64,000 bases of DNA from Candidatus Poribacteria bacterium (GCA_965222225.1 CBDCTK010000002.1:3744001-3808000), one strand, 5' to 3'. Positions 14,718-61,043 are shown, counted from the first letter of the stretch. The notes: generated by a model from the sequence alone, not told the origin. A program made the numbers and translations.

Positions 14718-14859
14718 GATAGATTCTCCTTTTTATGTACGGCAGCGCTCAGCGTTGCCGGGGGTTAATCTATGGCTATACTTCACTATTGGGGATTGTT
14801 GGATATTGGGAATTGTTGGATGAATCAGAAGGAGGTGGCTAGTGAAATGAAATGCTTAA

Positions 14860-15246
14860 GAGCCTGTTTGAAAAGTACAGTTTGTAGGGTGCGATCAAAC
14901 GAGTGGATAGCGAGTGCGATAGCTAATCCCGCGCGATAGAAATCCCATAGAAATCCTGCACCATTTCTTGTATGGTGCGATCAAAGGAATGAATAATGAC
15001 TGCGATAGAGATCCCCTTCGATTAAGTGACCGAATAGGGAACGCGATAGGGATCCTACCAGCCTTTGTGAGCCCCAGCGTGGGATCAAACGAGCGAATAG
15101 CGATCAAGCGACTGAATAAGGAGCGCGATAGAAATCCCGTGCGATAGAAATCCTGACAGGTGTATAGCAGGCGACCACAAAAGCATGAAAAAGCCGCACC
15201 CAAAGTGACCAAAAATCGCTTTGCCACCTATTATTCAATCAGGCTC
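14860..15246. mobile_element. MITE with IS5-family-like termini carrying five GA-hairpin units
   Basis: TIRs GAGCCTGTTTGAA / TTCAATCAGGCTC, flanks TAA/TTA; right ~190 bp homologous to the copy at 46797-47167. Confidence 0.75.
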
Positions 15247-15314
15247 TTAGTAAATGCCGTGCGATAGAGTCCCTGCTAGAAACAGCTATGTTTTTGGGGT
15301 AACTACAACCAGTT

Positions 15315-16257: not shown

Positions 16258-16523
16258 TGTAGGAGCGATCTCCAGGTCGCGATTCCGTAGAACCAAACGT
16301 TGTAGGAGCAATCAAGCGAGTGGATAGGTCAAGCGAGCGAACAGCGACCACGATAGCAATCCCCCTCCCGGTCGCGACCCATCAACGAAGCGGATAGTAA
16401 TTATAGGGTGCGATCAAAGGAATGAATAATGACTGCGATAGAGATCCCCTGCGATCAAGCGACTGGATAAGGAGCGCGATAGCTATCCCATGCGATAGAG
16501 ATCTTAGTGCGATAGAAATTCCC
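16258..16523 (+). repeat. REP/GA-hairpin mosaic at left island border
   Basis: Two GTAG REP heads plus about five units. Confidence 0.8.
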
Positions 16524-24210: not shown

Positions 24211-24257
24211 AGCCCCAGCGGGGATCAAACGAGTGAACAACGAGGGCGATAGAGTTC
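24211..24257 (+). repeat. GA-hairpin unit following a GCCCCAGCGGG mini-hairpin
   Basis: Same left context as at ~15071 and ~46995. Confidence 0.75.
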
Positions 24258-24449
24258 AGTGCGGCTCGACACATGCCGTCAGAAAGACAGAAAGGAAACA
24301 TATTGGGCATTGGAATTACCATGACTGTGAGTTTAGTTTTAAGGTTGGGTGTGGAACGAAGTGTAACAACATTCGAAATTTAGACCATCATCTTAACCAA
24401 AATTGACGTCGCTCGACTCTGCGGAACTGTCTGAGCCGGAAACACTGTG

Positions 24450-32804: not shown

Positions 32805-32828
32805 CGGCTACTACCCGATGTGGGAGGA

Positions 32829-33535
32829 GATCAAACGAGTGAATAGCGAGTGATCAAAGGAATGAATAATGACTGCGATAGTCAATCCTGATAGAAATTC
32901 TTTTATCTTGCCCCGATTAACCAAGCAGCCGTCAACTGACTGGACAAGGAAGGCGATTGTTGTAGGGTGCGCACTGCGCACCAGCCTTTTGTTTCTGTCG
33001 TATGATAGCACATTCCTTGCAACAGAAATCCCCGCCAACGCTTCAACCGATTTATAGTCGGGTCATCTTGCCCCGATTAACAGAGGTGCATTTAACCGAG
33101 ACTATGTGTAGGAGCGATCTCCAGGTCGCGATTCCATAAACCCAAACGTTGTAGGAACGTTCAACTGACTGAACAAGGAAGGATCAAGCGAGTGGATAAC
33201 GAGCGCGATAGAGCCCAAGGCGATAGCTGATCCCGATAGAGATCCTGCACCAGCCCTTGGTTTCTGTCGTACGATAGCAAATCCTGATAGTGAATCCCGA
33301 TACAAAATCCCGTGCGATCAAGCGACTGGATAAGGAGCGATCAACTGAGCGAATAGTGAAGGCGATAGAAACTCAGGATAGAAATTCCTCACGCGACACG
33401 TATCAGGGGATCAAAGGAATGGACAATGGCTGCGATAGAGATCCCTTAATCCGCGATTCAGACAATGCGATAGAGTCCTTATAGACGTCTTCTACCGGTC
33501 ACCGCTTCCTGTCGCGAGCAGCGCTCGCTTCTACA
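32829..33535 (+). repeat. Large REP/GA-hairpin mosaic at right island border
   Basis: About eight units, an uninterrupted REP at 32962-32986, and REP heads at 33107 and 33150. Confidence 0.85.
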
Positions 33536-33598
33536 ACTCTGTCTCGCGTCGCGAGAAATCAACTGTGTGTTGCGTCTTGCTCAAACGCATATTTTTTG

Positions 33599-33687
33599 TT
33601 GCAAACAATATAGATCTGATATATAATTTAACCTGCTTCAATTTGCAAACGGCTTCTCAATATCCGATTTTGTGAAGTTTTTCACAA
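33599..33687 (+). promoter_or_regulatory. nuo promoter plus Rex-type operator
   Basis: TTGCAA-17-TATAAT (33599-33627); TTGTGAA-GTTT-TTCACAA (33670-33687) matches the Rex consensus. Confidence 0.75.
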
Positions 33688-33711
33688 TCACTTGGAAAGA
33701 TAGCAGGGACA

Positions 33712-34116
33712 ATGTTTTTTAACTTCGCAAATGTACTGATTTTCCTTATCGTCGGTTCCGTTTTCGTGGCGCTGAACCTCGCCGTGTCTCGCCTGCTTCA
33801 AACGAAACTTTTCATGGAGGAGAAATTTATCCCGTATGAGTGTGGAGAGGATCCGATTGGCGATACGCGCATCAAGTTCAATACCCGCTTCTATGTCATT
33901 GCCCTCATTTTTTTGATTTTCGACGTTGAGGTGGTATTCCTGTTTCCGTGGGCGGTTGTTTTCCGCGGAATCGGTCTGCTTGCGTTTGTCGAGATGTTAA
34001 TCTTCATCGCCGTGCTGCTGGTTGGACTCGCCTACGTTTGGGCGAAGGGGGATCTTGAATGGATTCGTTCGATTCAGCAGGAGATTCAGGAAAAGCGTGA
34101 AGAAACTGAAGCCTAG
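33712..34116 (+). CDS. nuoA: NADH-quinone oxidoreductase subunit A
   Basis: [28 protein letters not shown]. Confidence 0.97.
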
Positions 34117-34139
34117 CCGGGCGCGGAGGACGATTCGCT

Positions 34140-34730
34140 ATGATTTTTGATGAGAAACTTGACAAAAACATTTTCGTCACATCTGTGGACGCCGTTGCGA
34201 ATTGGGCGCGGGCTTCCTCATTGTGGCCCATGACCTTCGGACTGGCATGTTGCGCGATTGAGTTTATGGCAACGGCGGCTTCCAACTATGACCTGGATCG
34301 GTTTGGGGCGGGCGTCCCGCGTGCGACTCCACGGCAATCGGATCTGTTGGTGATTTCCGGCACCGTCACCCTGAAGATGGCAACGCGAATTAAGCGGCTC
34401 TACGAACAGATGCCCGAACCCAAATACGTAATCTCGATGGGGAGTTGCGCCACGAGTGGCGGTCCCTACTGGCAGCACGGTTATCATGTGCTCAAGGGCG
34501 TCGATAGAATTATCCCTGTTGATGTCTATGTGCCCGGTTGTCCTCCTCGTCCCGAAGCCTTGATCGAAGGCTTGCTGAAGCTCCAGGAGAAGATTAAAAC
34601 ACAAACCGTCGCCAAGCGGTCGTACATTCCGTTCCTGCGAAGGCTCTATACCAAAACCGATCTTGAGGATCAAGAGATTGCGGCAGCGGTGGAGGAAGGC
34701 GCCGAGGAGAAGGAAGAAGCGACTAGCTGA
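34140..34730 (+). CDS. nuoB: NADH-quinone oxidoreductase subunit B
   Basis: [23 protein letters not shown]. Confidence 0.97.
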
Positions 34731-34809
34731 CAAACACCCCGAATGAAGCGCGAAAGGAGAGTTGCAACGCAATAGGTTGGTTTCCAGTTCCAAATGCGTT
34801 GATTTATCT

Positions 34810-35292
34810 GTGACATCGGAAGAAATTTACACAAAACTCAAAGGGGTGTTTGGAGACTCTGTCCTGTCCATTCAGGAGGTCGTTCTAGATTCGTTTATCC
34901 TCATCGCACCCGAGGCAATCGCCGAGATTGCCCGTTTTCTCGCCGAAGATAGCGAGTTGGCGTTCGATTCGTTGATGTGCTTAAGCGGGGTTGACTTGAG
35001 CATTAAAGAATCGAACCTTGAAATCGTCTACCATCTCTTCTCAATGACCCACCGTCACACAATCGTCCTTAAAGTTAACCTACCCAAGGAAGATCCGCAC
35101 ATTCCCTCCGTCGAAGATATCTGGAAGACAGCAAATTGGCACGAGCGGGAAGCGTACGATCTCTACGGAATAACCTTTGAAGGACACAGTGATCTGCGGC
35201 GAATCCTGATGCCGGAGGACTGGGAGGGGCACCCGTTACGCAAGGATTACAAGGATCCCGAATTCTATCGGGGGATGCGCGTGCCGTATTGA
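34810..35292 (+). CDS. nuoC: NADH-quinone oxidoreductase subunit C
   Basis: ANWHEREAYDLYGITFEGH, GHPLRKDY; GTG start assumed. Confidence 0.93.
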   Translation: MTSEEIYTKLKGVFGDSVLSIQEVVLDSFILIAPEAIAEIARFLAEDSELAFDSLMCLSGVDLSIKESNLEIVYHLFSMTHRHTIVLKVNLPKEDPHIPSVEDIWKTANWHEREAYDLYGITFEGHSDLRRILMPEDWEGHPLRKDYKDPEFYRGMRVPY

Positions 35293-35322
35293 TGAATGAG
35301 GATTGCTGTTGCGACTCCTATT

Positions 35323-35384
35323 GTAGGGTGGGATCAAGGGAGCGAATAGCGAATAGCGACTGCGATAGAGATCCACCGCCCACC
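35323..35384 (+). repeat. REP interrupted by a GA-hairpin unit
   Basis: GTAGGGTGG[unit]CACCGCCCACC versus the uninterrupted form at 1512. Confidence 0.85.
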
Positions 35385-35619
35385 ATTCCTTATTGAAGAG
35401 GTAAACCACCACTATTTGGGAACGTTTTGTGATATTGACTGCTGGTTCGTCAATACCTTAGGAAGAAATTATAGGCTTGCCGACGGATTAACTAATCGGG
35501 AATCACCAACACGAAATAGTTGTGTTTTTTCCTCAATGAATCGCCGAGCTACGAAGCCAAGAGGCCTCAACCGCCAAAGTCGCAATGTTATTATTCCTTG
35601 TTTCCGAAAGGAGAATATC

Positions 35620-37314
35620 ATGGTGCGCAAAACATCATTAATCGCTATTTTACTATGCCTAACCCTTCTTCTGCTGGGAAGAACCGCCGTGGCCAACATC
35701 CTTACGACCGAAGAGATTGCCGAGAAGGCGCTAAGTGCGACAGTTCTGCTAACGATGAGAGATGCGGACGATAGAGTAATCGGATATGGGAGCGGATTCT
35801 TTGTTTTACCGAATGTTATTGCAACCAACTTTCACGTGATTGAAGGTACACACCGAGGCACCGCCCGTCGCGTTGCTCAAAACAAATCGTATACCCTCAA
35901 ACAGCTTCTTAAGAGCGATGAAAAACAAGATTTGGCGCTGTTCGAAGTATCAGCTCCGGATGTCGAACCGCTTCCCATCGGCGACAGCGGTAGTAGGTCG
36001 TTACGAATCGGCGCGACAGTTTATGTTGCCGGTAATCCGCTGGGTTACTGGTGGGGGACCTTCTCCGAGGGTATTGTTAGCGCCCGTCGAAGTTGGGATG
36101 ATGGAGTGGAGAGGTTACAGATGACAGCTCCGATTTCGCCCGGAAACAGTGGCGGCCCCGTACTTAATAACAGAGGCGAAGTAATAGGTGTTTCCGTCGC
36201 ATCAAGTTCAGATGACAGGGCTCAAAATATCAACTTCGCCGTTCCATCTAGCGAACTCAAGAAACTCGTCGCAGAATTGAATCCCCCGACTGTGAGCCTT
36301 GTTCTCCCTCGGCGATCGAATTGGAATATTGGCGACACAGTTGATGTTTCTCTTAAAATCGACAACGGGACGGACATTGCAGGTTTTCAGGTAACCGTAG
36401 GATTTGATGGTTCCGTTCTTAAATATGTGGAGGCTTTGAAGGGTGATTACATCCTCAGAGGGGATGAGTTCGCACGTAAAATAGACGGCGAAAATCAGGT
36501 GACATTGGCGGCAACGGGCTTCCCCCAGGTAATGGATGACGATGGCGTACTTGCTGTAATTAAGTTTGAAGTTACTGCTTTCAAGCCTTATGGATGGGTA
36601 CTATCCGACCTAATTCTGTCCCGAGCGATTCTCGTGAATCCAGATGGAGGTCGTTCATATCCTCTTGTATCTCATGCGAAGGTATGGGCGCGCCCACTGG
36701 GATTCCAAGAAGATGTAAACGGTGATGGTGATGTAAATATTCTGGATTTACGATCTGTTTTCACCAATTTTGGGGTCCGGGGGAGGAATCATGCGGATGT
36801 CAATAAAGATGGTGTCGTTGATGTCGTTGATTTGGTAAGGGTTGCCTCTGCCATACACACTCCTCTGGGAGCTCCTCCATTCGCTCAAGAAGTTCTTGCG
36901 GGATTCACTGCCACAGAGCTGAAGCAATGGTTGACACAAGCCTCGCAGCTCGGTCTGACGGATCCCACTTCGCTGAAAGGCATTTTCGTTTTGGAGCAAC
37001 TCCTCAAAACATTCGTCCCGAAAGAGACGGCGCTGTTACCCAATTTTCCAAATCCCTTCAATCCGGAGACATGGATTCCGTACCACCTCGCCAGTGCCTC
37101 CGACGTGCAGATTGCGGTATACAACACAAACGGCGCGATGGTACGTCAATGGGACTTGGGACATCGAGAAGCTGGATTCTACACCGATAGAAGCAACGCC
37201 GTATACTGGGACGGACGTAATCGACACGGCCAGTTTATCGCAAGCGGCGTTTATTTTTACTCGTTAACTGCCGGTGATTTTACGGCTACCAGGAAAATGA
37301 TAATCGGAAAGTAA
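35620..37314 (+). CDS. Secreted trypsin-like serine protease with cohesin, dockerin and FlgD/T9SS-like C-terminal domains
   Basis: Signal peptide, TNFHV / DLAL / PGNSGGP triad, cohesin-like beta domain, DVNGDGDVNILDL + DVNKDGVVDVVDL, LLPNFPNPFNPETWIPY...ASGVYFY. Confidence 0.85.
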   Translation: MVRKTSLIAILLCLTLLLLGRTAVANILTTEEIAEKALSATVLLTMRDADDRVIGYGSGFFVLPNVIATNFHVIEGTHRGTARRVAQNKSYTLKQLLKSDEKQDLALFEVSAPDVEPLPIGDSGSRSLRIGATVYVAGNPLGYWWGTFSEGIVSARRSWDDGVERLQMTAPISPGNSGGPVLNNRGEVIGVSVASSSDDRAQNINFAVPSSELKKLVAELNPPTVSLVLPRRSNWNIGDTVDVSLKIDNGTDIAGFQVTVGFDGSVLKYVEALKGDYILRGDEFARKIDGENQVTLAATGFPQVMDDDGVLAVIKFEVTAFKPYGWVLSDLILSRAILVNPDGGRSYPLVSHAKVWARPLGFQEDVNGDGDVNILDLRSVFTNFGVRGRNHADVNKDGVVDVVDLVRVASAIHTPLGAPPFAQEVLAGFTATELKQWLTQASQLGLTDPTSLKGIFVLEQLLKTFVPKETALLPNFPNPFNPETWIPYHLASASDVQIAVYNTNGAMVRQWDLGHREAGFYTDRSNAVYWDGRNRHGQFIASGVYFYSLTAGDFTATRKMIIGK

Positions 37315-37449
37315 CTTGGACTGCAAGACAGGCACAGACCGGGGTAATCGCACCAGACTCCAAACCCGAGCTTGGATAAGTGGTGCTTTCAAATCATTAC
37401 ACTGTTGACGAAACGCTAATATTGAGAAACACAATCGAGCGGATTTATT

Positions 37450-37483
37450 ATGGCAGCGCCACAACTTGAAAGCAAATTCATAG
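37450..37483 (+). repeat. 34-bp exact copy of the nuoD 5' end
   Basis: ATGGCAGCGCCACAACTTGAAAGCAAATTCATAG also at 39649-39682. Confidence 0.95.
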
Positions 37484-37490
37484 TACAATT

Positions 37491-37599
37491 GTAGGGTGGG
37501 ATCAAGGGAGATCAAGCGACTGAATAAGGAGCGATCAACTGACTGGTTAAGGAAGGCGATAGTAGATCCTGATAGAAGATCCCGTGCGATAGAGATCCC
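37491..37599 (+). repeat. REP head plus triple-nested GA-hairpin units
   Basis: Three GATCAA heads followed by three GATAG tails. Confidence 0.85.
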
Positions 37600-37760
37600 G
37601 TGAAGGATGATGAGTATGAGGCATGGTTGAGCCTATCAATTCGGGGCTTGGGAGAAGCGTACGGGAAGGATGAACCGGAGTATTCTACCAACCTTATTAA
37701 AGAGGTAAACCCTCAGTATGAGGGAAGGTAATGTCATCTAGACCCCAGTTCTCTCAGATT
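37600..37760 (+). pseudogene. Toxin-antitoxin relic (short antitoxin-like ORF plus truncated PemK/MazF-like start)
   Basis: DDEYEAWLSLSIRGLGEAYGKDEPEY...NPQYEGR* overlapped by MREGNVI*TP. Confidence 0.5.
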
Positions 37761-37796
37761 AGTTGAGTTAGAAAGCGGTTAAACAAGACAGAAGAT

Positions 37797-39617
37797 ATGG
37801 ATGCAAATATAGTTAATCTACAGAAACTATTCCATCAACAGGTCTCCTATCGAATTCCCCAATTCCAGAGGCCCTACGCATGGAAAGAAGAGGTCCAATG
37901 GAAACCCCTTTGGGCTGACATACTTAGTCTTGCTGCACGCGTTCTCAACAGGGAAGAGGACGACAGAATACTCCCGCACTTCATGGGAGCTATCGTACTT
38001 CAACAACAGAGAAGCAATACAGGTGAAGTAACTAAAAGACTCGTAGTTGATGGGCAACAGCGACTCACTACCTTGCAACTTCTTATAAAGGCAACAGAAC
38101 AGGTATTTGAAATTCAACAGGATCCGGTAAGAGCCTCCCGATTGCGCGCACTAATAATTAATCAGAACAGCCATTGGGGCGCCGGTGGCGGTGACAACAA
38201 GACCAAAATCAAGCAGTCCAACTTCAACGATCAGAAAGCATTTCACGAAGCTATCGCGGCACCTCATATTGGTGATGAGAACCAATCGTGGGCACTTAAT
38301 GCTTTAAGTTACTTCAAAGAAGAACTGAGCAACTGGCTAAACTACGCCCCGGAAAGCATGAACGGCCGAGCCGATGCGTTCGAAGAAGCGCTGACTCAGC
38401 ATCTAAAAATAGCGGTAATTGACTTGGACGAAGACGAAAAACCTCACGTCATTTTTGAGACTCTGAACGCTAGGGGTGAACCGCTAAAGCAATCAGACCT
38501 TATTAAAAACATAGTTATGTACGAGGCAAATGTCATAGATGATGACGAGCAAGCGAAAAAACTTTGGGGCTTCTTTGACCACGAATGGTGGCAACAAGAT
38601 AGCAAGGAAAGTAGATCATCACCCACAATCCACATCGACAGATTCCTTCGCTACTGGATGGTCATGCGGTCGTTGAAAGATGTTACCGCAAATAGAGTCG
38701 CGTCGGAGTTCAGAAACTACTTAGGAGCCACACAATCATCCATTAAGACTGTTACCTCAGATATCCAAATGGCTGGAGCATGCTACGTGCTAATAGAAGG
38801 AAATTTTCGAGGTTTCCGAAAAAATCCAGAAAGGGAGATTTTCTTCAAACGACTGAAAACCATTGAATTAGGCGTAGTTACCCCTGTGCTTTTATGGCTA
38901 TTCACATCCAAGGTACCGGACGAGCGACAGCAGCGCTGCATTGAGATACTGGAAAGCTACGGGGTGAGGCGGAAACTCTGCGGCTTGCAGACCCAAGGCC
39001 TGAATAAGGTTTTTATCGGTTTACTTCAGGTGCTTGACAGTGAGGGGCCGGATTGCGCCGACATGACTGTTTTACGCTTCTTGAGACGTCAGCACGCTGA
39101 TAGCAGTATATGGCCCAATGATCGTATGCTGCGCGAATATCTTACTACCAGTCAAATGAAGGGTAATTCTCCTTGGAAGAAGATGGTACTAGAAGCCATT
39201 GAAGTACACTTGCGAAGTGATAGATCTGAGCAGCTCGGGTCAACCAGTAATTTAGAGATTGAACATGTTATGCCACAGACGTGGCAGACGGAGCACTGGC
39301 CGCTGTGGCCTGAAAATTCAAATCAAGATGAAGCTGAAAGCGCCAGAGACGAAGCTATACAAAAAATCGGAAATCTAACTCTGACGTCTGAAAAATTAAA
39401 TAAAATCCTAAGGAACGGCCCATGGCATGAAAAACGGCTAACGCTGGCTAATCATAGCAGTCTGTTTCTTAACAAGACATTACTTGATGATGCCCCCGGT
39501 GTTTGGGATGAAGCAGCCATTCAAAGACGCTGTCAATGGATAACTGAAAAAATCTTGCAGATTTGGCCCTCTGCTGAAGAGTTCGCCGAATCAGCCGCAC
39601 AATCTTCACAAATCTAA
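37797..39617 (+). CDS. GmrSD-family (DUF262 + DUF1524/HNH) modification-dependent nuclease
   Basis: IPQFQRPYAW, VDGQQRLTT, IFETLNARG, IEHVMPQ, IGNLTL. Confidence 0.92.
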   Translation: MDANIVNLQKLFHQQVSYRIPQFQRPYAWKEEVQWKPLWADILSLAARVLNREEDDRILPHFMGAIVLQQQRSNTGEVTKRLVVDGQQRLTTLQLLIKATEQVFEIQQDPVRASRLRALIINQNSHWGAGGGDNKTKIKQSNFNDQKAFHEAIAAPHIGDENQSWALNALSYFKEELSNWLNYAPESMNGRADAFEEALTQHLKIAVIDLDEDEKPHVIFETLNARGEPLKQSDLIKNIVMYEANVIDDDEQAKKLWGFFDHEWWQQDSKESRSSPTIHIDRFLRYWMVMRSLKDVTANRVASEFRNYLGATQSSIKTVTSDIQMAGACYVLIEGNFRGFRKNPEREIFFKRLKTIELGVVTPVLLWLFTSKVPDERQQRCIEILESYGVRRKLCGLQTQGLNKVFIGLLQVLDSEGPDCADMTVLRFLRRQHADSSIWPNDRMLREYLTTSQMKGNSPWKKMVLEAIEVHLRSDRSEQLGSTSNLEIEHVMPQTWQTEHWPLWPENSNQDEAESARDEAIQKIGNLTLTSEKLNKILRNGPWHEKRLTLANHSSLFLNKTLLDDAPGVWDEAAIQRRCQWITEKILQIWPSAEEFAESAAQSSQI

Positions 39618-39648
39618 ACGTGTTTCATAAGGTCTAAACGAGTTCACC

Positions 39649-40827
39649 ATGGCAGCGCCACAACTTGAAAGCAAATTCATAGAACTACAGCCGTTTTGTG
39701 ACGAGATGATTGTCAACATGGGACCTCAACATCCGAGCACGCATGGCGTGTTGCGGCTTGAGTTGAGACTTGACGGCGAGGTTGTCCGGGAAGCCATTCC
39801 GCATATCGGCTATCTGCACCGCTGCTTTGAGAAACATTCCGAGAACTTGTCTTATCCGCAAATCATCCCGTTTACCGATCGGATGGACTACATCGCCGCC
39901 ATGAACCAAAATTGGGGATTCTGCTTGGCGGTGGAGAAGCTGATGGCGGCGGATGAGAAGAAGACCTTTGAAGTCCCCGAACGTGCGGAATATTTGCGTG
40001 TGCTCATCTGTGAACTGAATCGAATCGCAAGTCATCTTCTGGCGTTTGGAACCTACGGCATGGATATTGGCGCCTTTACGCCGTTTCTGTACGCCTTTCG
40101 GGACCGCGAAAAGATTCTGCTGCTCTTCGAAAAAGTCTGCGGCGCACGCTTGACGTACAACTATGTCCGTATCGGCGGCGTTTCCAGAGATCTGCCGCCT
40201 GAATTTCTTGACGAAGTGAAAGAATTTATTGATTACTTTGAGCCGAAGATTGATGATTATAATGACCTTCTTTCGGGCAACAGTATTTTTACCGAACGCA
40301 CCACCGGGGTCGCGGTGATGTCCCAGGAGATGGCGATCGACTACGGAGCAACGGGGCCAAACCTGCGCGGCGCCGGAATGCAGTGGGATCTGCGGGTGGA
40401 TGAGCCGTATTCAATTTACGACCGGTTCGACTTCGACATCCCGGTCGGCAAGGATATACCAGAGATTGGCGCGGTCAAAGGTGACTGCTGGAATCGGTAC
40501 AAGGTGCGGATGGATGAGTTGAAGGAGTGCGTTAAGATTGTCCGACAGATACTTGAGGGCGGCATTCCCGATGGACCGATTGTGGCAGAATTCAAAGCGG
40601 TGCGCCCACCCAAGGGGGAAATCTTCTACCGGAGCGAGGCGCCGCGCGGTGAGTTGGGATTCTACATCGTGAGCGATGGCACGCCGAAACCGCTTCGCCT
40701 GAAGGCGAGGTCGCCGTGCTTTAGTGCGCTGAGCGCATTGTCGGAATTGAGCAAAGGATTGATGCTCGCCGATATCATTGCGATTATCGGAAGTATCGAT
40801 ATTGTGATGGGAGAGGTTGACCGCTAA
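39649..40827 (+). CDS. nuoD: NADH-quinone oxidoreductase subunit D
   Basis: NMGPQHPSTHGVLRL, GYLHR, EAPRGE, DIVMGEVDR. Confidence 0.98.
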   Translation: MAAPQLESKFIELQPFCDEMIVNMGPQHPSTHGVLRLELRLDGEVVREAIPHIGYLHRCFEKHSENLSYPQIIPFTDRMDYIAAMNQNWGFCLAVEKLMAADEKKTFEVPERAEYLRVLICELNRIASHLLAFGTYGMDIGAFTPFLYAFRDREKILLLFEKVCGARLTYNYVRIGGVSRDLPPEFLDEVKEFIDYFEPKIDDYNDLLSGNSIFTERTTGVAVMSQEMAIDYGATGPNLRGAGMQWDLRVDEPYSIYDRFDFDIPVGKDIPEIGAVKGDCWNRYKVRMDELKECVKIVRQILEGGIPDGPIVAEFKAVRPPKGEIFYRSEAPRGELGFYIVSDGTPKPLRLKARSPCFSALSALSELSKGLMLADIIAIIGSIDIVMGEVDR

Positions 40828-40920
40828 AACCGGTGAAGAGCGCAGAACCGATTTAACTCGCCAAGGAGTGCGATAGAGCTCCACTAGCCACTGTTTTTAT
40901 ATCTTCCAACTAGGAGTTGA

Positions 40921-42186
40921 GTGTTGGACGCGATACAGCAAATTATTGCGAGTTTTTCACGAGTATCCTCCCAAGCCGCGGGAAACTGGGCGGAGGAATT
41001 TGCCCGGAACCGATTGATTCCGCTTTTGGAACATCTCCCGTTTGTTCCGGCGGGGGTCGCCGAACACTTTCCGGTTTCGCTGGGCACGATTCTCGTGATG
41101 TTTGGAGCCTGCGCCGTTTTTGCCGCCATTGTGCCGCTTATCCCGCTAGTTCTGGTATTGGCGGAGCGCAAGGTTTCCGCCCAAATTCAGAACCGGACAG
41201 GTCCCATGCGCGTAGGCCCGTGGGGAACCCTTCAAACGCTGGCGGACGGGGTTAAGTTGATTTTTAAGGAGGATTTCGTCCCGCCTCAGGGCGACAAACT
41301 ACTTTTTGTCCTCGCGCCGTACATCATCTTCGCGTGTTCGTTCGCCGCGTTCGCCGCCATCCCGTTTGGCCAGGGAATCCTAATCAGCGACCTGAATATC
41401 GGCATCTTCTATATTATGGCGATTTCCTCCGTGGTTGTGATGGGCGTCATTATGGCGGGCTGGTCGTCCAACAGCAAATGGTCGCTTTTGGGCGCGCTCC
41501 GATCCGCCGCGCAAATCGTGAGCTACGAAATCCCGCTGGGGCTTTCCATTCTGGTTGTTGTGATGCTGGTTCAGAGCCTGAGAATGCAGGACATCGTCGC
41601 CAGTCAATCCGACGGACTGTTTAGCTGGTTGATTTTCCGCACGCCCTTTACGTTTATCGCCTTTTTCGTCTTTTTTATCTCATCAATCGCCGAAGTGAAT
41701 CGCACTCCTTTTGATTTGCCGGAGGCGGAATCGGAGATCGTCGCAGGCTTCCACACCGAATACAGCGGGATGCGGTTCGCGCTTTTCTTCATTGCGGAAT
41801 ACGCAAACATGTTCGCCGTGAGCGCCATTGCGGCAACGTTGTTCCTTGGCGGTTGGGAGGGCATCCTGCCGGGATACGACTTCCTCGGCGGAATGCCGGG
41901 CTTTGTGCTTAAGACGCTGTTCCTGGTTTTCATTATGATGTGGTTGCGGTGGACGCTGCCGAGGCTGAGAGTTGACCAACTGATGAACCTGTGCTGGAAA
42001 TATTTCCTGCCAATCGCATTCTTCAATATTCTGGGAGTCGGGATATGGGGATTGATTTTCCCGGAGGACTCCACGCTAAGCATAATCATCAGCATGGTTC
42101 TCATCCTTGCGGGGATTATCGTCACCTACGCCGTGGCGGGGAAGAGTCTGTCCAAACGCCCCGAACCTCAGCCGAGTTCGGCATAA
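40921..42186 (+). CDS. nuoH: NADH-quinone oxidoreductase subunit H
   Basis: ERKVSAQIQNRTGP, NRTPFDLPEAESE, LPRLRVDQLM; start uncertain. Confidence 0.95.
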   Translation: MLDAIQQIIASFSRVSSQAAGNWAEEFARNRLIPLLEHLPFVPAGVAEHFPVSLGTILVMFGACAVFAAIVPLIPLVLVLAERKVSAQIQNRTGPMRVGPWGTLQTLADGVKLIFKEDFVPPQGDKLLFVLAPYIIFACSFAAFAAIPFGQGILISDLNIGIFYIMAISSVVVMGVIMAGWSSNSKWSLLGALRSAAQIVSYEIPLGLSILVVVMLVQSLRMQDIVASQSDGLFSWLIFRTPFTFIAFFVFFISSIAEVNRTPFDLPEAESEIVAGFHTEYSGMRFALFFIAEYANMFAVSAIAATLFLGGWEGILPGYDFLGGMPGFVLKTLFLVFIMMWLRWTLPRLRVDQLMNLCWKYFLPIAFFNILGVGIWGLIFPEDSTLSIIISMVLILAGIIVTYAVAGKSLSKRPEPQPSSA

Positions 42187-42207
42187 CATAGGGAGGCATG
42201 GTTCACG

Positions 42208-42861
42208 ATGAATAAGTATTTCTTTAATATCTATAGAGCGCTCTATACGGTGCTCATCGGCATGCGCATAACGTTTAAGCAGATGTTCCAGCACGCAGTT
42301 ACGCACCAATATCCCTATGAACATCCGTTCGAGAAAAAGCGAAATGTACGCGAGATTCCCAAGGGCTATCGGGGACAACTGTTCAATCGGATTGAGGACT
42401 GTATCGGTTGCAAGAAGTGCGAAATGATCTGTCCTGTTGACTGCATCGCCATCACGACCCAAAAACTTCCCAAAGGCGAACGGCTTTGGGATAGCATGAA
42501 TGTGCTCCATCTTACGGATCGCACGGAGGTTGTCGGTTTCGTCGAAGGCGAGGAAAAGGTTGCTCCAAACACAACGGTTACCGTTAAAACTCGCGATGGG
42601 GAGACACTGACAATCCCGAGCGACGATATAAATCGTGTCGTCGAACGGAAACCTGTCATCTTCTATCTTGACAAGTTTGACATTGATATGTCGCTCTGCA
42701 TGTACTGCGGGCTTTGTACCGAGGTTTGCCCGACGGAGTGCTTGATAATGATAGATGAGATGAGGGGCATTGCGTATTCAACGTTTGACAGAATGGACTT
42801 GATATTTCCGTTCGCCAAGCCCGATATGTACGATCAAGCGAGTGATCAAGGGAGTGAATAA
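42208..42861 (+). CDS. nuoI: NADH-quinone oxidoreductase subunit I with internal insertion
   Basis: CIGCKKCEMICP and CMYCGLCTEVCP. Confidence 0.93.
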   Translation: MNKYFFNIYRALYTVLIGMRITFKQMFQHAVTHQYPYEHPFEKKRNVREIPKGYRGQLFNRIEDCIGCKKCEMICPVDCIAITTQKLPKGERLWDSMNVLHLTDRTEVVGFVEGEEKVAPNTTVTVKTRDGETLTIPSDDINRVVERKPVIFYLDKFDIDMSLCMYCGLCTEVCPTECLIMIDEMRGIAYSTFDRMDLIFPFAKPDMYDQASDQGSE

Positions 42862-43060
42862 CGACCGCGATAGAACTCCCATAGAGATCCCTCAAGCGAG
42901 TGAATAACGACCGCGATAGCTAATCCCGATAGTAACTCCCTCAAGCTACTGGAAAAGGAGCGATCAACTGAACGGATAGTGAAGGAGCAACTGACCGATA
43001 GGGAAGGCGGTAGAGATCCCATAGAAAGTCTTGATAGTGAATCCTAATAGCAAATCCCTC
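42832..43060 (+). repeat. GA-hairpin cluster (about six units) overlapping the nuoI 3' end
   Basis: Units at 42832, 42844, ~42891, ~42941, 42962 and ~42988. Confidence 0.85.
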
Positions 43061-43127
43061 GGGATAAAGTTCCCTTTTCAAGAAAAATCTCGGTTTCGAC
43101 CTACTATTTACCAAACACTTACAGATT

Positions 43128-43655
43128 ATGGATTTCGTCGGCATTAAATCTCTGATATTCTACGCTTTCGCTCTGTTGACGGTCGTATCCGCGCTGCTCG
43201 TGGTAACCGTGCGGAATATCGTTCACGCCGCGTTTTCGTTGATGATTACACTTTTTGGCGTTGCGGGGCTTTATGTGTTTCTACAAGCGGACTTCCTCGC
43301 CGCCACACAGGTGATTGTCTACGTCGGCGGAATTTTGGTGCTCATCCTTTTCGGCGTCATGATGACGAGCGGCCGCCTCCAGATGAGGATTCAAATTGAG
43401 CGGGGACAGTTAATCCTCGGTGGATTGGTCGCGCTCCTGATTCTGCTGCTGCTGCTCGGCGTGATTGCGAACACGCCTCAATGGGACGGGCTTAAAGACG
43501 ACGGGGCAACCTTGGAACCGACAACACGCCATATCGGCGAGATGATTATGCAGGGAGAGTTCCTGCTGCCGTTTGAAGCTGTCTCAATCCTTCTGTTAGT
43601 GGCGCTCATTGGAGCCGCATTGATTTCTCGCAAGGAGGTCAGAGACGAAGAATGA
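43128..43655 (+). CDS. nuoJ: NADH-quinone oxidoreductase subunit J
   Basis: QVIVYVGGILVLILFGVMM, LLPFEAVSILLL. Confidence 0.96.
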   Translation: MDFVGIKSLIFYAFALLTVVSALLVVTVRNIVHAAFSLMITLFGVAGLYVFLQADFLAATQVIVYVGGILVLILFGVMMTSGRLQMRIQIERGQLILGGLVALLILLLLLGVIANTPQWDGLKDDGATLEPTTRHIGEMIMQGEFLLPFEAVSILLLVALIGAALISRKEVRDEE

Positions 43656-43960
43656 CGCTGCAGCACTATCTGGTTATCAGCGCGGCTCTGTTCGCGCTTG
43701 GCGTATTTGCTGTCTTGACCCGCCGAAACGCCATTAGTATCTTGATGGGGATTGAACTAATCCTGAATTCCTGCAACCTGAACTTCGCGGCGTTTTCACG
43801 CTTTGTAACGCCTGCCGAAGACATCAATGGCCAAATCATCTCCATCTTTGGGATTGTGCTTGCCGCTGCGGAGGCGGCAGTGTTTTTGGCTATTATTTTG
43901 GCGATTTACAGGGAGTTTGGCACCATTCAGCCCAATGAGACGGATACGTTGAAGGGGTAA
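43652..43960 (+). CDS. nuoK: NADH-quinone oxidoreductase subunit K
   Basis: RRNAISILMGIELILN, AAAEAAV. Confidence 0.96.
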   Translation: MTLQHYLVISAALFALGVFAVLTRRNAISILMGIELILNSCNLNFAAFSRFVTPAEDINGQIISIFGIVLAAAEAAVFLAIILAIYREFGTIQPNETDTLKG

Positions 43961-43964
43961 TAAG

Positions 43965-44359
43965 ATGTGCCGGATTTTGGTTGACCTCAGGCTGACAAAT
44001 AGTCAAGATATGCTCCGTGCAGAAGATCTGCCTCCTGAGCACATTCGTCAGACAACAGCTCACGCGGGGCGGCGCGACTGGTAATTACCGCCGCAGTGGC
44101 TGAACAGTTGGGGCTGCCCGAAACTGGCGAAGTGGGAATTCGTTATGCGGACGGACGGACGGGAACACGCAAGGTCGTCGAAAATATCCGGGTGGCACTC
44201 CTGGGCAGCGAATTCACGTTTCGCGCTATTGTCGAGCCAGACCGAGACACAGCTCTTATCGGCGCGATTGTCCTTGAAGAACTTGAGTTTGTCGTGGATT
44301 GTGTTTCCCAGAGGTTGTATCCAAGAGATCCAAATCGTATCATCGCGGAGATTGAATAA
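43965..44359 (+). pseudogene. Clan AA aspartic protease, frameshifted at the catalytic motif
   Basis: MCRILVDLRLTNSQD...QTTA, then a frame change to AGAARLVIT...QLGLP...YADGR...LIGAIVLEEL; D(T/S)G motif disrupted. Confidence 0.75.
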
Positions 44360-44371
44360 GGAAAGGGGCGT

Positions 44372-46588
44372 ATGGTCGTACCTTTAATCAGCATTATTCT
44401 GCTTTGTCCGCTCGCGGCGTTCGCGTTCTTCGCGCTACTATCACTGACCGGTCGAAATTATTCGCGCCAAGATCTCATCTCGACCGCGGCAATGCTTATC
44501 GCCGCAATCTGCTCCTTCCTCCTTCTGCCGCAGATTTCTTCTCGCCCGGAACCCATCTCGCTCACGTGGATTGAAATCGACGAAATCAAACTGTCGATGG
44601 GCTTCTATTTCGACAGCGTGACCGCGATGATGTTGCTCGTCGTCACGATTGTCAGTAGCCTCGTTCATATCTTTTCCATCGGCTACATGCACAGCGATAC
44701 CCGTTACCCCCGGTTCTTTGCCTTCCTCTCGCTGTTCTCCTTTTCAATGTTATTCCTCGTCGTTTCCGACAACCTGTTGGGCATCTATATCGGCTGGGAG
44801 CTTGTCGGATTGTGCTCGTATCTGCTCATCGGGTTCTGGTTTGAGAAGGACTCCGCCGCGAACGCATGCAAGAAGGCGTTCCTGACCACTCGTGTGGGCG
44901 ATGTGGGGATGTTCGTGGGCATGATGATGTTGTTCACGAAATTCCATACGTTCGCACTTTACGGCGATGGCGGCATCTTCGCATTGGTCGCTGGATTAGG
45001 GTCCGGGGACATCGTTTGGTTATCCATAGCGGGCGTTCTCATTTTTTGCGGGGCTATCGGTAAGTCTGCGCAGTTTCCGCTGCACACGTGGTTGCCCGAC
45101 GCCATGGAGGGCCCCACACCCGTCAGCGCGCTCATCCATGCGGCGACGATGGTGGCAGCCGGCGTCTACTTGACGGCGCGGATGTTTCCCATTCTAACGC
45201 CCGATTCCTCTCTCACGATTGCCTACATCGGAGGTATCACGGCAATAGTCGCCGCCACAATCGCCATTGTCCGGTTTGACATCAAGCGGGTGCTCGCCTA
45301 CTCGACAATTAGCCAACTGGGATTTATGATGCTGGGAATCGGCGCCGGGAGTTATGTTGCGGGTCTCTTCCACCTCACGACGCACGCGTTCTTCAAAGCG
45401 CTGCTGTTCCTCGGATCTGGCAGCGTTATCCATGCGTTGGCTGTTCATAACGGCTCTCACGATGACGAGCACGAACATGAATCGGAGCACCATGAAACCG
45501 AACACCATGACCATGGGCAGTTTGACAGTTTCGGTATTCCGGCTGAACAGGATATGCGCCACATGGGCGGGCTTCGGCGCAAGATGCCCATCACCTTCCT
45601 CACGATGCTGATTGCAACCTTGTCAATTTCGGGGGTGCCGTTCGTGTTCTCCGGGTTCTGGAGCAAAGACGCCATCTTGGGTGGTGTTCTGGAAAGGGCG
45701 ATGGGATGGGATTCAGTGCATTATTACATTCTTTTCATAATCGCGCTCGGTGCCGCGGGCATTACCGCCTTCTATATGTTCCGTCTCATCTTCATGACCT
45801 TCTTCGGCAAACCGCGCAACCGGGAGATGTACGACCATGCCCACGAATCGCCGGGCGTCATGGCGGTTCCGTTGATTATCCTGGCGGTTCTCAGTTTTCC
45901 GATTGTCAACACGTGGTCCTCCAATCCGTGGTCTTTTGACAAATATGTGAAGGCGCCGAAACAACCCCACGTGCATGCTCCCTCACATGCGAGCGACGAG
46001 CGTCCGGTCCTATACGCACTGGCAGGTGCTTCCAACGCGTACGCCGACGACGAGGACGCCGGGCATGGCGAACATGGCGCGGCGCACGGGGAACACGCCT
46101 CGGACGACCATCATGCTCACAGCCCCGCTCACAAGATTGCGATGGTTCTCTCCATTATTGTTGCCGGTTGCGGCATTTTGCTATCCTATCTGTTCTATCA
46201 TCTGAGGGTATTCTCCGCGGAAGGCGTGGCATCGCGTTTACGTCCGCTATACAATCTCTTCTGGAACAAATACTACTTCGATGAATTTTATAACGGGGTG
46301 ATTGTCGCATTTTTCGTCGCCTGGGCAGGGGCTCTCAAGGTCTTTGACCTGCGCGTGATTGACGGCATTGTGAATCTGGTTGGATTTGTCACGCGGGCGG
46401 TGGTCGCCGCGTTCACGGGTTGGTTCGATAACAAATTTGTTGATGGGCTTGTCAATTGGGTGGCGCAGATTACGTGGTTATTCGGCGGGAGGGTTAGACG
46501 GCTTCAAACCGGAGCAATCCAGAATTATCTGCTGGTCGTTTTGGGCGGTGTTGTGCTATTGATTTTGATTTTCCGGCGGTTTCTGTAG
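44372..46588 (+). CDS. nuoL: NADH-quinone oxidoreductase subunit L
   Basis: GWELVGLCSYLLIGFW, WLPDAMEGPTPVSALIHAATM, HAFFKALLFL. Confidence 0.97.
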   Translation: MVVPLISIILLCPLAAFAFFALLSLTGRNYSRQDLISTAAMLIAAICSFLLLPQISSRPEPISLTWIEIDEIKLSMGFYFDSVTAMMLLVVTIVSSLVHIFSIGYMHSDTRYPRFFAFLSLFSFSMLFLVVSDNLLGIYIGWELVGLCSYLLIGFWFEKDSAANACKKAFLTTRVGDVGMFVGMMMLFTKFHTFALYGDGGIFALVAGLGSGDIVWLSIAGVLIFCGAIGKSAQFPLHTWLPDAMEGPTPVSALIHAATMVAAGVYLTARMFPILTPDSSLTIAYIGGITAIVAATIAIVRFDIKRVLAYSTISQLGFMMLGIGAGSYVAGLFHLTTHAFFKALLFLGSGSVIHALAVHNGSHDDEHEHESEHHETEHHDHGQFDSFGIPAEQDMRHMGGLRRKMPITFLTMLIATLSISGVPFVFSGFWSKDAILGGVLERAMGWDSVHYYILFIIALGAAGITAFYMFRLIFMTFFGKPRNREMYDHAHESPGVMAVPLIILAVLSFPIVNTWSSNPWSFDKYVKAPKQPHVHAPSHASDERPVLYALAGASNAYADDEDAGHGEHGAAHGEHASDDHHAHSPAHKIAMVLSIIVAGCGILLSYLFYHLRVFSAEGVASRLRPLYNLFWNKYYFDEFYNGVIVAFFVAWAGALKVFDLRVIDGIVNLVGFVTRAVVAAFTGWFDNKFVDGLVNWVAQITWLFGGRVRRLQTGAIQNYLLVVLGGVVLLILIFRRFL

Positions 46589-46796
46589 GTGGGGAATATC
46601 TGGTTTAGAGCCTGTTTGGTCATTTGAAAGGGGCTTTTGTCGCGAGCTGGAGTTCGCTCCTACAAACCAGACACGAAGCAGAGAAGATTTCACCTTCGAT
46701 TTGATTTGATGATCAAGGTCGGTCTGGATTGCCAAATCCAGACCGACCGTCGGACTTGGCAATCCGACGGGCGCAGAGATGTGTCGGTCAGACTTA

Positions 46797-47167
46797 GAGC
46801 CTGTTTGAAAATTCATTTCGGGTAGAACTTTTGCCCTGAAACCGATCAAATGAGCGAATAGCGAATGTGATAAATGTGATAGAAATCCCTATTTTCTTGA
46901 AAACTCCGTTTCTTTCTTGCGCAATCCCGTAGGGTGCGATCAAAGGAATGAATAATGACTGCGATAGAGATCCCCTGCGCACCAGCCTTTGTGAGCCCCA
47001 GCGGGGATCAAGCAAGTGGATAACGATCGAGCGACTGAATAAGGAGCGCGATAGAAATCCCGTGCGATTAGGAATCCTATAGGTGTATAGCAGGCGACCA
47101 CAAAAGCATGAAAAAGCCGCGCCCAAGGTGACCGAAATTGCTTTGCCACCTATTTTCAAGCAGGCTC
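46797..47167. mobile_element. Second MITE copy with TTA target duplication
   Basis: TTA|GAGCCTGTTTGAAAAT ... ATTTTCAAGCAGGCTC|TTA; an extra orphan left end TTA|GAGCCTGTTTG at 46608. Confidence 0.8.
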
Positions 47168-47244
47168 TTAAGGGAAATGAACTAGACCTGACAAGAGGAT
47201 GTATTTCAATTTTTGCAGTGGTGTAATTGGGAGGTATTTATTAG

Positions 47245-59368: not shown

Positions 59369-59999
59369 AAGCATCTCTGTTTTGGTCGAAATAATTGTTA
59401 TTTTTTTTAGCGCATCTATTTCCGGAGGAATTCATTATAGCACATCCAAAAATTCATGCCGAATTTTTTCTTGACTAACTTAACGTATGTATGGTATTGT
59501 GTCGGTATTATTGGTTGGAGTGGAGGGAAAACAACCATATTTACACGTGCTTAAAGCGGAGATTGGTTATGTTCGCGTGCCTGCTCATTTATAATTGTGA
59601 CGAGTGCTCTATTCAAATCGGCGAATTACTAGCTTTCTATTCATCAAAATGGGAACTTGGGGATGGTGGCGTCATCTATACAGATTTCGGCAGTATCGGC
59701 GATCGAATTCAAGTGTTGATTTATGAACTAAAACTCAGGGAGATGCAAGCCCGTATAGGTGTTGCCCCCTCGCGTTTTGCCAGCTTCGTCGCCGCCCACG
59801 CTGTCGACGTTGAAACGCCTCTCTTCATATCGCCGGTGCAGCTTGAGGCCTTCCTGGCTGACCAAAGCGTTTCATATCTCCCAATCTCCGGCAAGAACCA
59901 AGAACGTTTGGGGATGTTGGGACTACGGACATTAGGTCAGGTCGCACGCATTGATGTCCGTGAACTCGTAAATCAATTCGGACGGGAGGGCCAATTCAT

Positions 60000-61043
60000 T
60001 AGGAGTTACGCAGTTGGCTGAAGCGTATAAAGAGGTTGTGCCAAATAAGCCCGTACCGCATCTCTGACAATAGAGAGTTTTGCATCAAACCAACTGATAC
60101 CGGTATGATAGCAATAGTGCTCAATTCTCAGAAAGGCTCTCAGCGCTAAACCGATATGATTTCTTTGAGTGCGAGCAGAGCGCACTTGTGCGCGTTCAAT
60201 GCCAACAAATTGCTTAATCCCGCGATGATATTCTTCTATTGTCCAAGACCATTCGGCATATTTGAGACGCGTCAATTCGTCCATCTGTAAATCATTCGTT
60301 GCCCAATATTCAATGTCACCTTCTGGAGTGTCAACCTTAAATACTCGAATCAATCCATAGCCTTTGAGATGGACAATTGTACCTGTTGATTCACTCGGAA
60401 GCGTACTCACCGGACGGTTACCGGAATAATCTTTACTGACAAGTCGGTTGGCAGCTAGACGAGTAAGCCACTTCCAACCATGACCTCGCACCGCTTTTAG
60501 ATTCTTTAGACTGGCATACCAACTATCAAAACACACACATTCAGGAGCAAAACCGCGTGTTTTCGCTTCTTCAAGCATGGCGCGGAAATGCTCATTCTTC
60601 GTCAAGCCGTCTTTGGCTTTATCATAGATTCGATAATCACACGGAATATGTCTATCGCCATCCGTCCAGAGCAAAGTGACCAAGTTAATCCCATTCACAA
60701 CTCGGTGGTGTTTCCCTGACCAGTGTTTTGTCACGAGTTCAATCTTTTGTGAATAAGGTTTATCCAGAGTCGAGTCATCTATAACTAAAATTCCGGATTC
60801 TAATTTCACCTGATTTCTCGATTCTTGCCACAGTTTGCCAGTATCGGGTTCCTCTCGATGCAAGAGCCGTGTTATCGAATCGTGAGCCGGAGGATTATCA
60901 GCTTGGGGTTGAACTTTTTCCGATTCAAGACAACTGTAACTTTTCTGAGCGGCTACCAAGAAATCAATATAGTCAGTGTCAGTATATTTAGGGGGATTCA
61001 TACTCAAATTATAACCTATTTTCACTCAACTGCGTAACTCCTA
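60000..61043 (-). mobile_element. Intact IS701/ISH3-type insertion sequence
   Basis: 17-bp perfect TIRs TAGGAGTTACGCAGTTG (60000-60016 / 61027-61043); 5-bp TSD TTCAT (59995-59999 / 61044-61048). Confidence 0.95.
60006..61001 (-). CDS. DDE transposase (IS701/ISH3-like)
   Basis: IDDSTLDKPY, FDSWY, WTIEEYHRGIKQ. Confidence 0.93.
   Translation of the reverse strand: MNPPKYTDTDYIDFLVAAQKSYSCLESEKVQPQADNPPAHDSITRLLHREEPDTGKLWQESRNQVKLESGILVIDDSTLDKPYSQKIELVTKHWSGKHHRVVNGINLVTLLWTDGDRHIPCDYRIYDKAKDGLTKNEHFRAMLEEAKTRGFAPECVCFDSWYASLKNLKAVRGHGWKWLTRLAANRLVSKDYSGNRPVSTLPSESTGTIVHLKGYGLIRVFKVDTPEGDIEYWATNDLQMDELTRLKYAEWSWTIEEYHRGIKQFVGIERAQVRSARTQRNHIGLALRAFLRIEHYCYHTGISWFDAKLSIVRDAVRAYLAQPLYTLQPTA

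Follow-up and report, generated by a model that had tools for sequence, protein, structure and literature searches.

The stretch of DNA considered here, called the window throughout, spans 64,000 nt of a genome of the sponge-associated Poribacteria (Candidatus Poribacteria, GCA_965222225.1 CBDCTK010000002.1:3744001-3808000) and carries pheST, rplT and an 11-subunit nuo operon. Its intergenic regions hold two kinds of short repeats, namely GTAG-led hairpins resembling repetitive extragenic palindromes (REPs) and a 36-nt unit that sits inside some of these hairpins. An initial annotation of the window had set empty hairpins beside filled ones and proposed that the unit is a parasite or cargo of the REP system, in which GTAG-led REPs are substrates of REP-associated tyrosine transposases (RAYTs). 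Genome contigs were scanned with one degenerate pattern of the unit, and at least 126 stretches matched. Among the matches listed, 126 of 126 stretches come from Candidatus Poribacteria metagenome-assembled genomes (MAGs) in 12 assemblies, a count that does not by itself prove the unit exclusive to Poribacteria. Eighty of the stretches were taken with 10-kb flanks (1.58 Mb, loci labelled L001 and so on) for comparison with the window. The HIP1-like and heptamer look of the sequence had at first suggested a cyanobacterial source, a reading rejected because the layout of the nuo operon and the scan matches both point to Poribacteria. The closest coding matches to the window among these loci, in L014, reach about 70-75% nucleotide identity, and the proteins of the nuo operon in L002 share just 37-48% identity with those of the window. 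Units and REPs are both present in 11 of the 11 assemblies tabulated, as they are in the window, so that their co-occurrence carries no information on any link between them. Searches of plasmid and phage collections with the unit gave no match, and no family of Rfam 15 matches it, the unit-bearing region 14850-15260 remaining without a match even at E values up to 10.

The unit is a micro-element that encodes nothing and is not autonomous. It opens with GATCAA, continues into a 4-pair stem that is broken by tandem G.A/A.G and capped by a 5-nt loop, and ends in the tail GCGATAGAGATCC. Extraction of simple units yielded 228 copies, 168 of them distinct, in which positions 1-6 and 24-30 are invariant or almost so. 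The stem, formed by positions 7-8 and 11-12 against 22-23 and 18-19, is seen in about 90 types, and its four pairs are each Watson-Crick in 127-155 of the 168 distinct units, while shuffles average 62-80 and never exceed 100. In a formal covariation count over 149 distinct rows, 96.7% of cells are paired, compared with 78.5% after shuffling, and double changes number 232 where shuffles give 48, no shuffle out of 500 coming as high; controls with a slid register score at most 0.107 against 0.574 at the true register. Between the two paired blocks GA stands opposite GA as a tandem G.A, and G13 faces A17 across a 3-nt loop. Since G.T wobbles are present (63 of 596 stem cells) and A.C-type cells are few, only the sense strand of the unit folds. 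With RNA energy parameters the minimum-energy structure is the covarying fold plus an invariant ATC/GAT helix, whereas DNA parameters do not return this fold as the minimum. Two units (L001:19624-19659 and L072:18230-18265) carry AC in place of GA at positions 9-10 and 20-21, and this swap on both sides of the tandem mismatch is possibly covariation at non-canonical pairs.

All of the filled and empty junctions on which the initial annotation relied at 32962, 46929-46987, 1512 and 35323-35384 are indeed present in the window (Table 1). In the filled REP of family A, the unit is followed by one C and then by the right arm (CCTGCGCACCAGCC / CTGCGCACCAGCC), so that comparison with the empty form reveals no simple insertion: the unit plus one C replaces about three bases (GCA) of the left arm. 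The same junction, with other unit subtypes, recurs in other Poribacteria genomes. The empty copy of family A folds as DNA at -8.8 kcal/mol (z = -2.96), and this family also flanks a RAYT gene in L029. The filled REP of family B contains a unit of 43 nt that carries one extra AGCGAAT heptamer. The further junctions named by the initial annotation exist as well, with qualifications for two of them. The REP at 37491 has no recognisable right arm, and the one at 16403 is degenerate and doubly hit, a second unit (16453-16488) having inserted in its leftover right arm after CCTGC.

Table 1. Repeats, units and the insertion sequence (IS) discussed in the text; positions are those of the window, and ORF stands for open reading frame and MITE for miniature inverted-repeat transposable element.
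Feature	Position	Strand	Details
Empty REP, family B	1512..1532	+	GTAGGGTGGACACCGCCCACC; variant of GTAGGGTGGGCACTGCCCACC
MITE-like repeat, copy 1	14856..15250	+	inverted ends AAGAGCCTG ... CAGGCTCTT; carries the REPs at 14884 and units
Two adjacent filled REP-like copies	14884..15070	+	
CCCCAGCGTGG hairpin of MITE-like repeat with nested unit pair	15071..15153	+	heads at 15083 and 15102
Degenerate REP of family A, starting ATAG instead of GTAG	16403..16521	+	unit 16412-16447
CCCCAGCGGG, then unit with degenerate tail	24213..24258	+	
Empty REP, family A	32962..32986	+	GTAGGGTGCGCACTGCGCACCAGCC; GTAG, 7-bp stem, 3-nt loop
Empty REP, family E	33108..33132	+	GTAGGAGCGATCTCC...TCGCGA
Filled REP, family B	35323..35384	+	left arm, 43-nt unit 35332-35374, right arm CACCGCCCACC
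REP B left arm with triple nest of units	37491..37598	+	heads at 37500, 37510 and 37533; three stacked tails
MITE-like repeat, copy 2, paralogous to copy 1	46793..47172	+	carries the filled REP at 46929
Filled REP, family A	46929..46987	+	left arm GTAGGGTGC 46929-46937, 36-nt unit 46938-46973
CCCCAGCGGG, then nested pair of units	46996..47076	+	
IS element with inverted ends	59999..61043	-	DDE transposase ORF 60006-61025; empty counterpart, insertion at ~60750-60753

Of the two adjacent REP-like copies in the first MITE-like repeat, one reads GTAGGGTGC, a unit at 14893, two more tails and then TGCACC, and the other reads GTATGGTGC, a unit at 14979, a degenerate unit and then TACCAGCC. Junctions in which CCCCAGCG(T)GG runs directly into GATCAA occur at 24213 and 46996, with a third, carrying an extra T, at 15071-15088; empty paralogs of this third site in other genomes read CCCCAGCGGGGCG. 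Further copies of family E start at 2426 and 16259 on the plus strand, and one lies near 46640-46665 on the minus strand. These arrangements are far from chance expectation: GTAGGGTGSGATCAA has four exact matches in the window (14884, 35323, 37491, 46929) and two with one mismatch (14970, 16403), all on the plus strand, against 0.01 expected, and 0 of 100 shuffles reach six. GTAGGGTG alone has six matches, all on the plus strand, against 0.74 expected, and the tail motif GATAGARATCC has 15, of which 14 are on the plus strand, against 0.06. Elsewhere, a degenerate C-like REP at 32816-32925, with right arm ATCTTGCCCCG, holds a nested unit pair at 32829-32900, and an unfilled paralog with a matching right flank (ATCTTGCCCCGATTAAC) lies 160 nt downstream at 33052-33080; the two look like one more filled/empty pair.

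The GTAG-led hairpins are real REPs of a RAYT system in Poribacteria. They have the 5' GTAG tag and a GC-rich imperfect palindrome of 20-40 nt, and they occur in many, mostly extragenic copies; those examined in the window fall between ORFs. Nine GTAGG-led palindrome families, A to I, were distinguished in the 1.67 Mb of window and loci, with 31-91 non-redundant copies each. In the related genomes RAYT genes stand beside cognate REPs, an arrangement known as a REPtron, and the REPs form doublets (REPINs). The ORF L029:15411-16094 scores 174.9 bits on the NCBIfam model NF047646 (REP-associated tyrosine transposase, cutoff 80) and lies between REP A on its upstream side and an inverted doublet of REP B on its downstream side, while L072:11532-12038(-) scores 125.6 bits on the same model and sits within arrays of doublets in which family E partners family G. 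The link between these hairpins and RAYT genes made by the initial annotation is thereby borne out. The window itself has no RAYT gene, in that no Y1_Tnp match was found among the 51 window ORFs scanned, and only three Y1-type ORFs were detected in 1.6 Mb with a motif pre-filter that may miss some. The third of these, L055:18636-19217, scores 34.6 bits against Pfam Y1_Tnp, and its 70.1 bits against the RAYT model fall short of the cutoff of 80; its neighbours, judged by reading the sequence without a family-library scan, look like cas1 and cas2.

How the unit enters its sites can be read from pairs of filled and empty paralogs. The joined flanks of 243 simple units were searched against the window and the loci; 138 had a match spanning the junction, and 76 non-redundant pairs were resolved, 37 in REPs, 20 in CCxGxG hairpins of MITE-like repeats, 9 in other units and 10 elsewhere. 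Flank identity is at least 90% in 23 of these pairs and at least 95% in 9. The 51 pairs with an exact right flank served to read the junction. The lost target bases begin with G in all 51 (GC in 28, GA in 13) and are mostly GCG or GCA; position -2 is a purine in 50; and immediately behind the 36-mer stands C in 29 pairs and T in 8. Insertion lengthens the site by a net 34 nt in 24 pairs, by 33 nt in 11, by 35 nt in 11, by 36 nt in 3 and by 32 nt in 2. Between one and five target bases are lost per insertion, the 3' junction varies, and no target duplication is present at the junctions of these pairs, the form of the junction being constant inside each REP family. These data show an exchange in which the unit plus C or T takes the place of about three target bases, the first of them G. 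They also show that the sites are short, with a purine at -2 and G at the junction, and that the unit enters them in a single orientation. Self-insertion follows the same pattern as insertion in REPs, with a purine at -2 and lost bases that start with G and are mostly GCG or GCA, which agrees with the likeness of contexts seen in the initial annotation. Ligation of GATC sticky ends, site-specific recombination through a shared core and target-site duplication were considered as models and rejected, as the junctions that each predicts were not observed.

The clearest single insertion event, on sequence comparison, is found in the IS listed in Table 1. A near-identical copy in another Poribacteria assembly (L074:9249-10323; 92.3% when the entire BLAST match, gap included, is counted) carries one unit, with a net gain of 34 nt, inside its transposase ORF and with no REP nearby. 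The near identity of the two copies points to recent activity or transfer of the IS. Taken together, the comparisons make it probable that the unit is, or recently was, mobile in Poribacteria genomes.

REPs are shown by the counts to be favoured landing sites, and the units used as seeds of the scan were removed before counting, against ascertainment bias. A GTAG start lies 4-14 nt upstream of 58 of 273 non-seed unit heads, or 54 of 210 under a stricter definition of the head, and 30 non-seed cases have GTAG at exactly -9, where a background position has about 1.8. The window, whose units are independent of the scan, gives 6 of 29 for the range of 4-14 nt. The occupation of GTAG hairpins proposed initially, and the proximity to GTAG by which it was to be checked, thus hold in the sample of window and loci as an enrichment that is specific to position. 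The families differ in how often they are filled: A in 5 of 34 copies, B in 7 of 36, C in 14 of 39, D in 6 of 40 and E in 11 of 92, together 43 of 241, against F in 1 of 65, G in 1 of 40, H in 0 of 32 and I in 0 of 30, together 2 of 167. In the filled non-seed REPs, 45 units lie in the orientation of GTAG and none in reverse, with one reverse case in the full set. About three units in four sit elsewhere than in REPs, their hosts being other units, MITE hairpins and, for one of them, the transposase gene of an IS.

Units also insert into units. Of 320 heads with an intact hairpin, 253 are followed by their own tail and 34 directly by another head, the latter being nested units in the same orientation; at least nine further heads are followed by an inverted unit. 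In nested stacks the unit lands at GCG just 3' of the hairpin of another unit, and some REPs hold two or three insertions at different positions. Head-to-tail arrays with a 34-nt period are seen at L058:10001-10140, in which each following unit is without its first three bases, the loss expected under the junction rule if one unit enters another at its 5' end. Inverted unit pairs, with the reverse unit at the usual hot spot, form long palindromes in L044, L027 and L033 (for example at L044:7828 and 9097), and several sites show them between the same flanks, which makes the composite look like a spreading repeat of its own.

Composites of REP and unit are also carried inside MITE copies, which lends some substance to the word cargo in the initial annotation; a parasitic relation of the unit to the REP system is possible and unproven. 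One unit variant in REP A occurs in the same MITE context in L019, L020 and L066 on OZ244829.1, in a one-base variant in L107, and again in L078 of another assembly, and L032 has three tandem 330-bp copies, each with REP C plus unit. Such cases, together with the constancy of the junction within a family, could suggest that filled REPs are a composite class, descended from one ancestral fusion of REP and unit that spread whole, for example inside a MITE. The inserts argue otherwise. Instead of being invariant, as a separate REP class spreading as one unit would have them, the stem types of simple units number 8 among 9 in family A, 6 among 7 in B, 10 among 14 in C and 6 among 9 in D, and inserts that differ within one REP family therefore point to independent insertions and not to a single composite. 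The same unit subtypes are moreover found in non-REP contexts, five unrelated REP families and many non-REP targets follow one junction rule, and REPs with insertions at two or three positions are not expected from one fusion. As the sole process, spread of a composite is already largely refuted, and it is considered very improbable as an account of filled REPs.

The orientation of units is locally coherent. Unit heads in the window number 32 on the plus and 3 on the minus strand across about 20 separate intergenic sites (1587-55640), and related loci are one-sided as well, many at 10:0 or 0:9. This coherence follows neither gene direction, GC skew nor chromosome position. Transcription was rejected as its source, since flanking co-directional genes give 57 sense against 47 antisense units, and so was replication, given a 20-kb GC skew correlation of r = -0.15 and no two-block pattern along the complete OZ244829.1.

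The lack of bias towards co-directional genes also bears on whether the unit might be a structured motif with a function for the host, such as a protein-binding site or a processing or termination signal, that was spread by recombination or duplication under selection. The strong covariation with G.U-type wobbles, the RNA minimum-energy fold that coincides with the covarying pairs, and the invariant single-stranded segments 1-6 and 24-30, which look like a protein-recognition surface, would all suit such a motif. However, units nest in units and have entered the transposase gene of an IS, locations that make a function for the host implausible, Rfam offers no counterpart even at permissive E values, and the precise boundaries and many empty paralogous sites speak for insertion. 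A host function is thus an unlikely explanation of the unit.

The reading preferred here is that the unit would move through a single-stranded intermediate of its sense strand, handled by a protein encoded elsewhere. It lands in the 5' arm of GTAG-led REPs of families A to E, in other units and in G-rich hairpins of MITEs. Families A to E may be preferred because they offer a short G-rich target in an accessible hairpin, and the 3' junction of the unit itself and the MITE hairpins would likewise offer such a target. Filled REPs are then copied onward as the surrounding MITE moves. As to the chemistry, an RNA-templated route is a serious candidate that falls short of probable; it is favoured by the wobble-rich stem, by an RNA fold that coincides with the covarying pairs and by a loose 3' junction with small losses of target. 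A route through single-stranded DNA (ssDNA) and a Y1/HUH enzyme such as a RAYT is held only tentatively; in its favour are the constant distance from GTAG, the strictness of orientation and the lack of truncated copies. Some other route altogether deserves as much credence as the RNA-templated one.

A more specific form of the ssDNA route makes the unit a parasite of the REP/RAYT system, in which the host RAYT, a Y1/HUH enzyme, would take the ssDNA hairpin of the unit and paste it into the REPs that it binds, so that the unit adds a second tier of RAYT-dependent mobile DNA. In related genomes the REP families that receive units (A/B and E) do flank RAYT genes, the insertion offset from GTAG is fixed (+9 in A, B and C) with none of the non-seed units reversed, the unit folds on one strand only, and targets are not duplicated. 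Fork-coupled transposition of ssDNA would yield locally coherent orientation, such as the 32 to 3 of the window. On the other hand, most units lie outside REPs, one of them in an IS gene without a REP nearby, and family G, the REPIN partner of E at the same RAYT gene, is filled in just 1 of 40 copies, with F, H and I together at 1 of 127. The unit has neither GTAG nor a GC-rich palindrome. In REP stems (families A, B, C, H and I) 982 of 1001 cells are Watson-Crick and 9 are G.T, as opposed to 63 G.T among 596 cells in the stems of units, which suggests that the two kinds of stem are differently constrained. Y1 transposases insert precisely, unlike a process that loses 1-5 target bases and leaves a variable 3' junction, and no pattern with replichore or GC skew was seen. 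Parasitism of RAYTs in this sense is accordingly regarded as doubtful.

Several points weigh against the preferred reading of a mobile single-stranded unit. All filled/empty comparisons are between paralogous repeats or IS copies, none being orthologous, and the window's own genome lies outside the loci compared; the 51 junction pairs fall in about a dozen target classes and are therefore not independent. The predicted hairpin is weak, at -2.7 to -6.5 kcal/mol as RNA with z no better than -1.6 and at 0 to -2.2 kcal/mol as DNA; these z-scores are not significant, and it is covariation that carries the argument for the fold. In family H the 5' arm contains GCG, yet none of the 32 copies is filled, so that the short target rule must be incomplete. 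A Y1/HUH route is disfavoured by the variable 3' junction, the loss of a few target bases and the single weak hairpin, and a reverse transcription route by the lack of any excess of 5'-truncated copies. Such copies were looked for as a mark of target-primed reverse transcription, and tail-only singletons number 149 where chance alone would give about 150. A search of the 320 intact heads in 1.6 Mb for an autonomous relative bounded by ends like those of the unit gave none, and no enzyme for movement of the unit was identified in this analysis.

It is tempting to see in the unit a new class of ultra-small elements, in which a single-stranded hairpin module of 36/37 nt replaces about three bases at purine-N-G, a chemistry undescribed for transposon families, and is moved either by a domesticated RAYT, as a hyperparasite, or by an RNA-templated route. 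This is a speculative proposal, and on present evidence somewhat unlikely. If true, either route would imply that across a whole candidate phylum MITE, REP and unit are nested in three tiers, units within units included.

The remaining content of the window deserves brief mention. Within the nuo operon (nuoA-B-C ... D-H-I-J-K-L-M-N), two genes lie between nuoC and nuoD (35416-39617), the first encoding a trypsin-like protein with cohesin/dockerin and FlgD-Ig domains, whose C-terminal domain is highly multiplied in related genomes, and the second a GmrSD-type restriction endonuclease. The sole window match to Rfam at gathering scores is a T-box leader at 6317-6570 (-), upstream of pheS (93.5 bits, gathering score 93). 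A defence-like cluster at 19097-23129 comprises a DUF5662 protein, an AbiU2-type HEPN protein (20589-21341) and a Schlafen AlbA_2 protein (21819-23129, -). At 18581-18727, a 21-nt tandem repeat of seven near-identical copies (99% matches) overlaps the ORF 18586-18981.

Placed among known systems, the Poribacteria hairpins fit readily with the REP/REPIN-RAYT systems described by Bertels and Rainey (2011, PMC3116915) and with the GTAG-tagged REPs that Di Nocera et al. (2013, PMC3733652) report from several phyla: they share the GTAG tag, the GC-rich palindrome, the many extragenic copies, the REPIN doublets and the RAYT genes. REP/RAYT systems thus extend to Poribacteria, for which no published account of them was found in the literature. 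The unit shares with REPs the logic of a single-strand hairpin and the absence of target duplication, but it starts with GATCAA in place of GTAG, has four variable pairs and a tandem G.A with many G.T in place of a GC-rich palindrome, and interrupts REPs. IS1397 is an insertion sequence that targets REPs. The same is described for ISPa11, ISPpu9, ISPpu10, ISPsy8 and ISRm22 by Tobes and Pareja (2006, PMC1525189). In these cases too, REPs are hot spots for sequence-specific insertion by another mobile element; those elements, however, are kilobase-sized and autonomous with transposases of their own, whereas the unit has 36 nt, encodes nothing and also targets itself. Derivatives of IS200/IS605 known as palindrome-associated transposable elements (PATEs), which move as ssDNA by 'peel and paste', have subterminal hairpins at both ends and a length of at least about 100 nt, and insert precisely on the 3' side of a fixed tetra- or pentanucleotide, with no target bases lost. 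The unit resembles them in its strand-specific hairpin, the short specific target adjoining it, the lack of target duplication and the oriented insertion. It differs in having one weak hairpin, a target rule of only purine-N-G, a loss of 1-5 target bases with a net gain of 32 to 36 nt, and a variable 3' junction.

These comparisons carry several implications. A smaller element can colonise and disrupt REPs, which bears on models of REPIN populations as long-lived replicators. Units also inflate intergenic regions, as in the nuoL-nuoM gap of 656 nt against about 90 nt in a distant Poribacteria nuo operon, and such dense repeats may make Poribacteria MAGs harder to assemble and annotate. A literature search returned no paper containing the 13-mer tail of the unit or its reverse complement, the 11-mer turning up in four papers, whose topics are unrelated.

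By analogy of behaviour, the closest precedent is the small dispersed repeats (SDR1-8) of Nostocaceae cyanobacteria. As Elhai and colleagues reportedly set out in Genome Research in 2008, these are tiny non-coding repeats whose hairpins show compensatory changes and which insert into one another in nested fashion. They are also said to insert in HIP1, in MITEs and in heptamer arrays, with mobility inferred and RNA intermediates suspected. The unit is likewise tiny, with a covarying hairpin, and nests in itself and inserts in other repeats; it differs in its 36 nt, in its phylum and in favouring RAYT-associated REPs. Very small mobile repeats have thus been known since 2008 without a mechanism, and the question is now testable: a defined 36-nt module, a fold proven by covariation, a junction rule and a few candidate enzymes, among them the RAYT genes beside the very REP families that are hit, make it addressable with oligonucleotides and purified proteins. 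Passages of two sources describe the insertion of SDR5 into HIP1 and a restriction of SDRs to Nostocaceae (PMC4390886, PMC5861425), the second giving their length as 21-27 nt and stating that they are reported only in that family. Set beside these repeats, what is new here is the other phylum, the longer module, the use of REPs as targets of a micro-element and an explicit junction rule in which three bases are replaced, and the unit is among the smallest mobile DNA elements seen.

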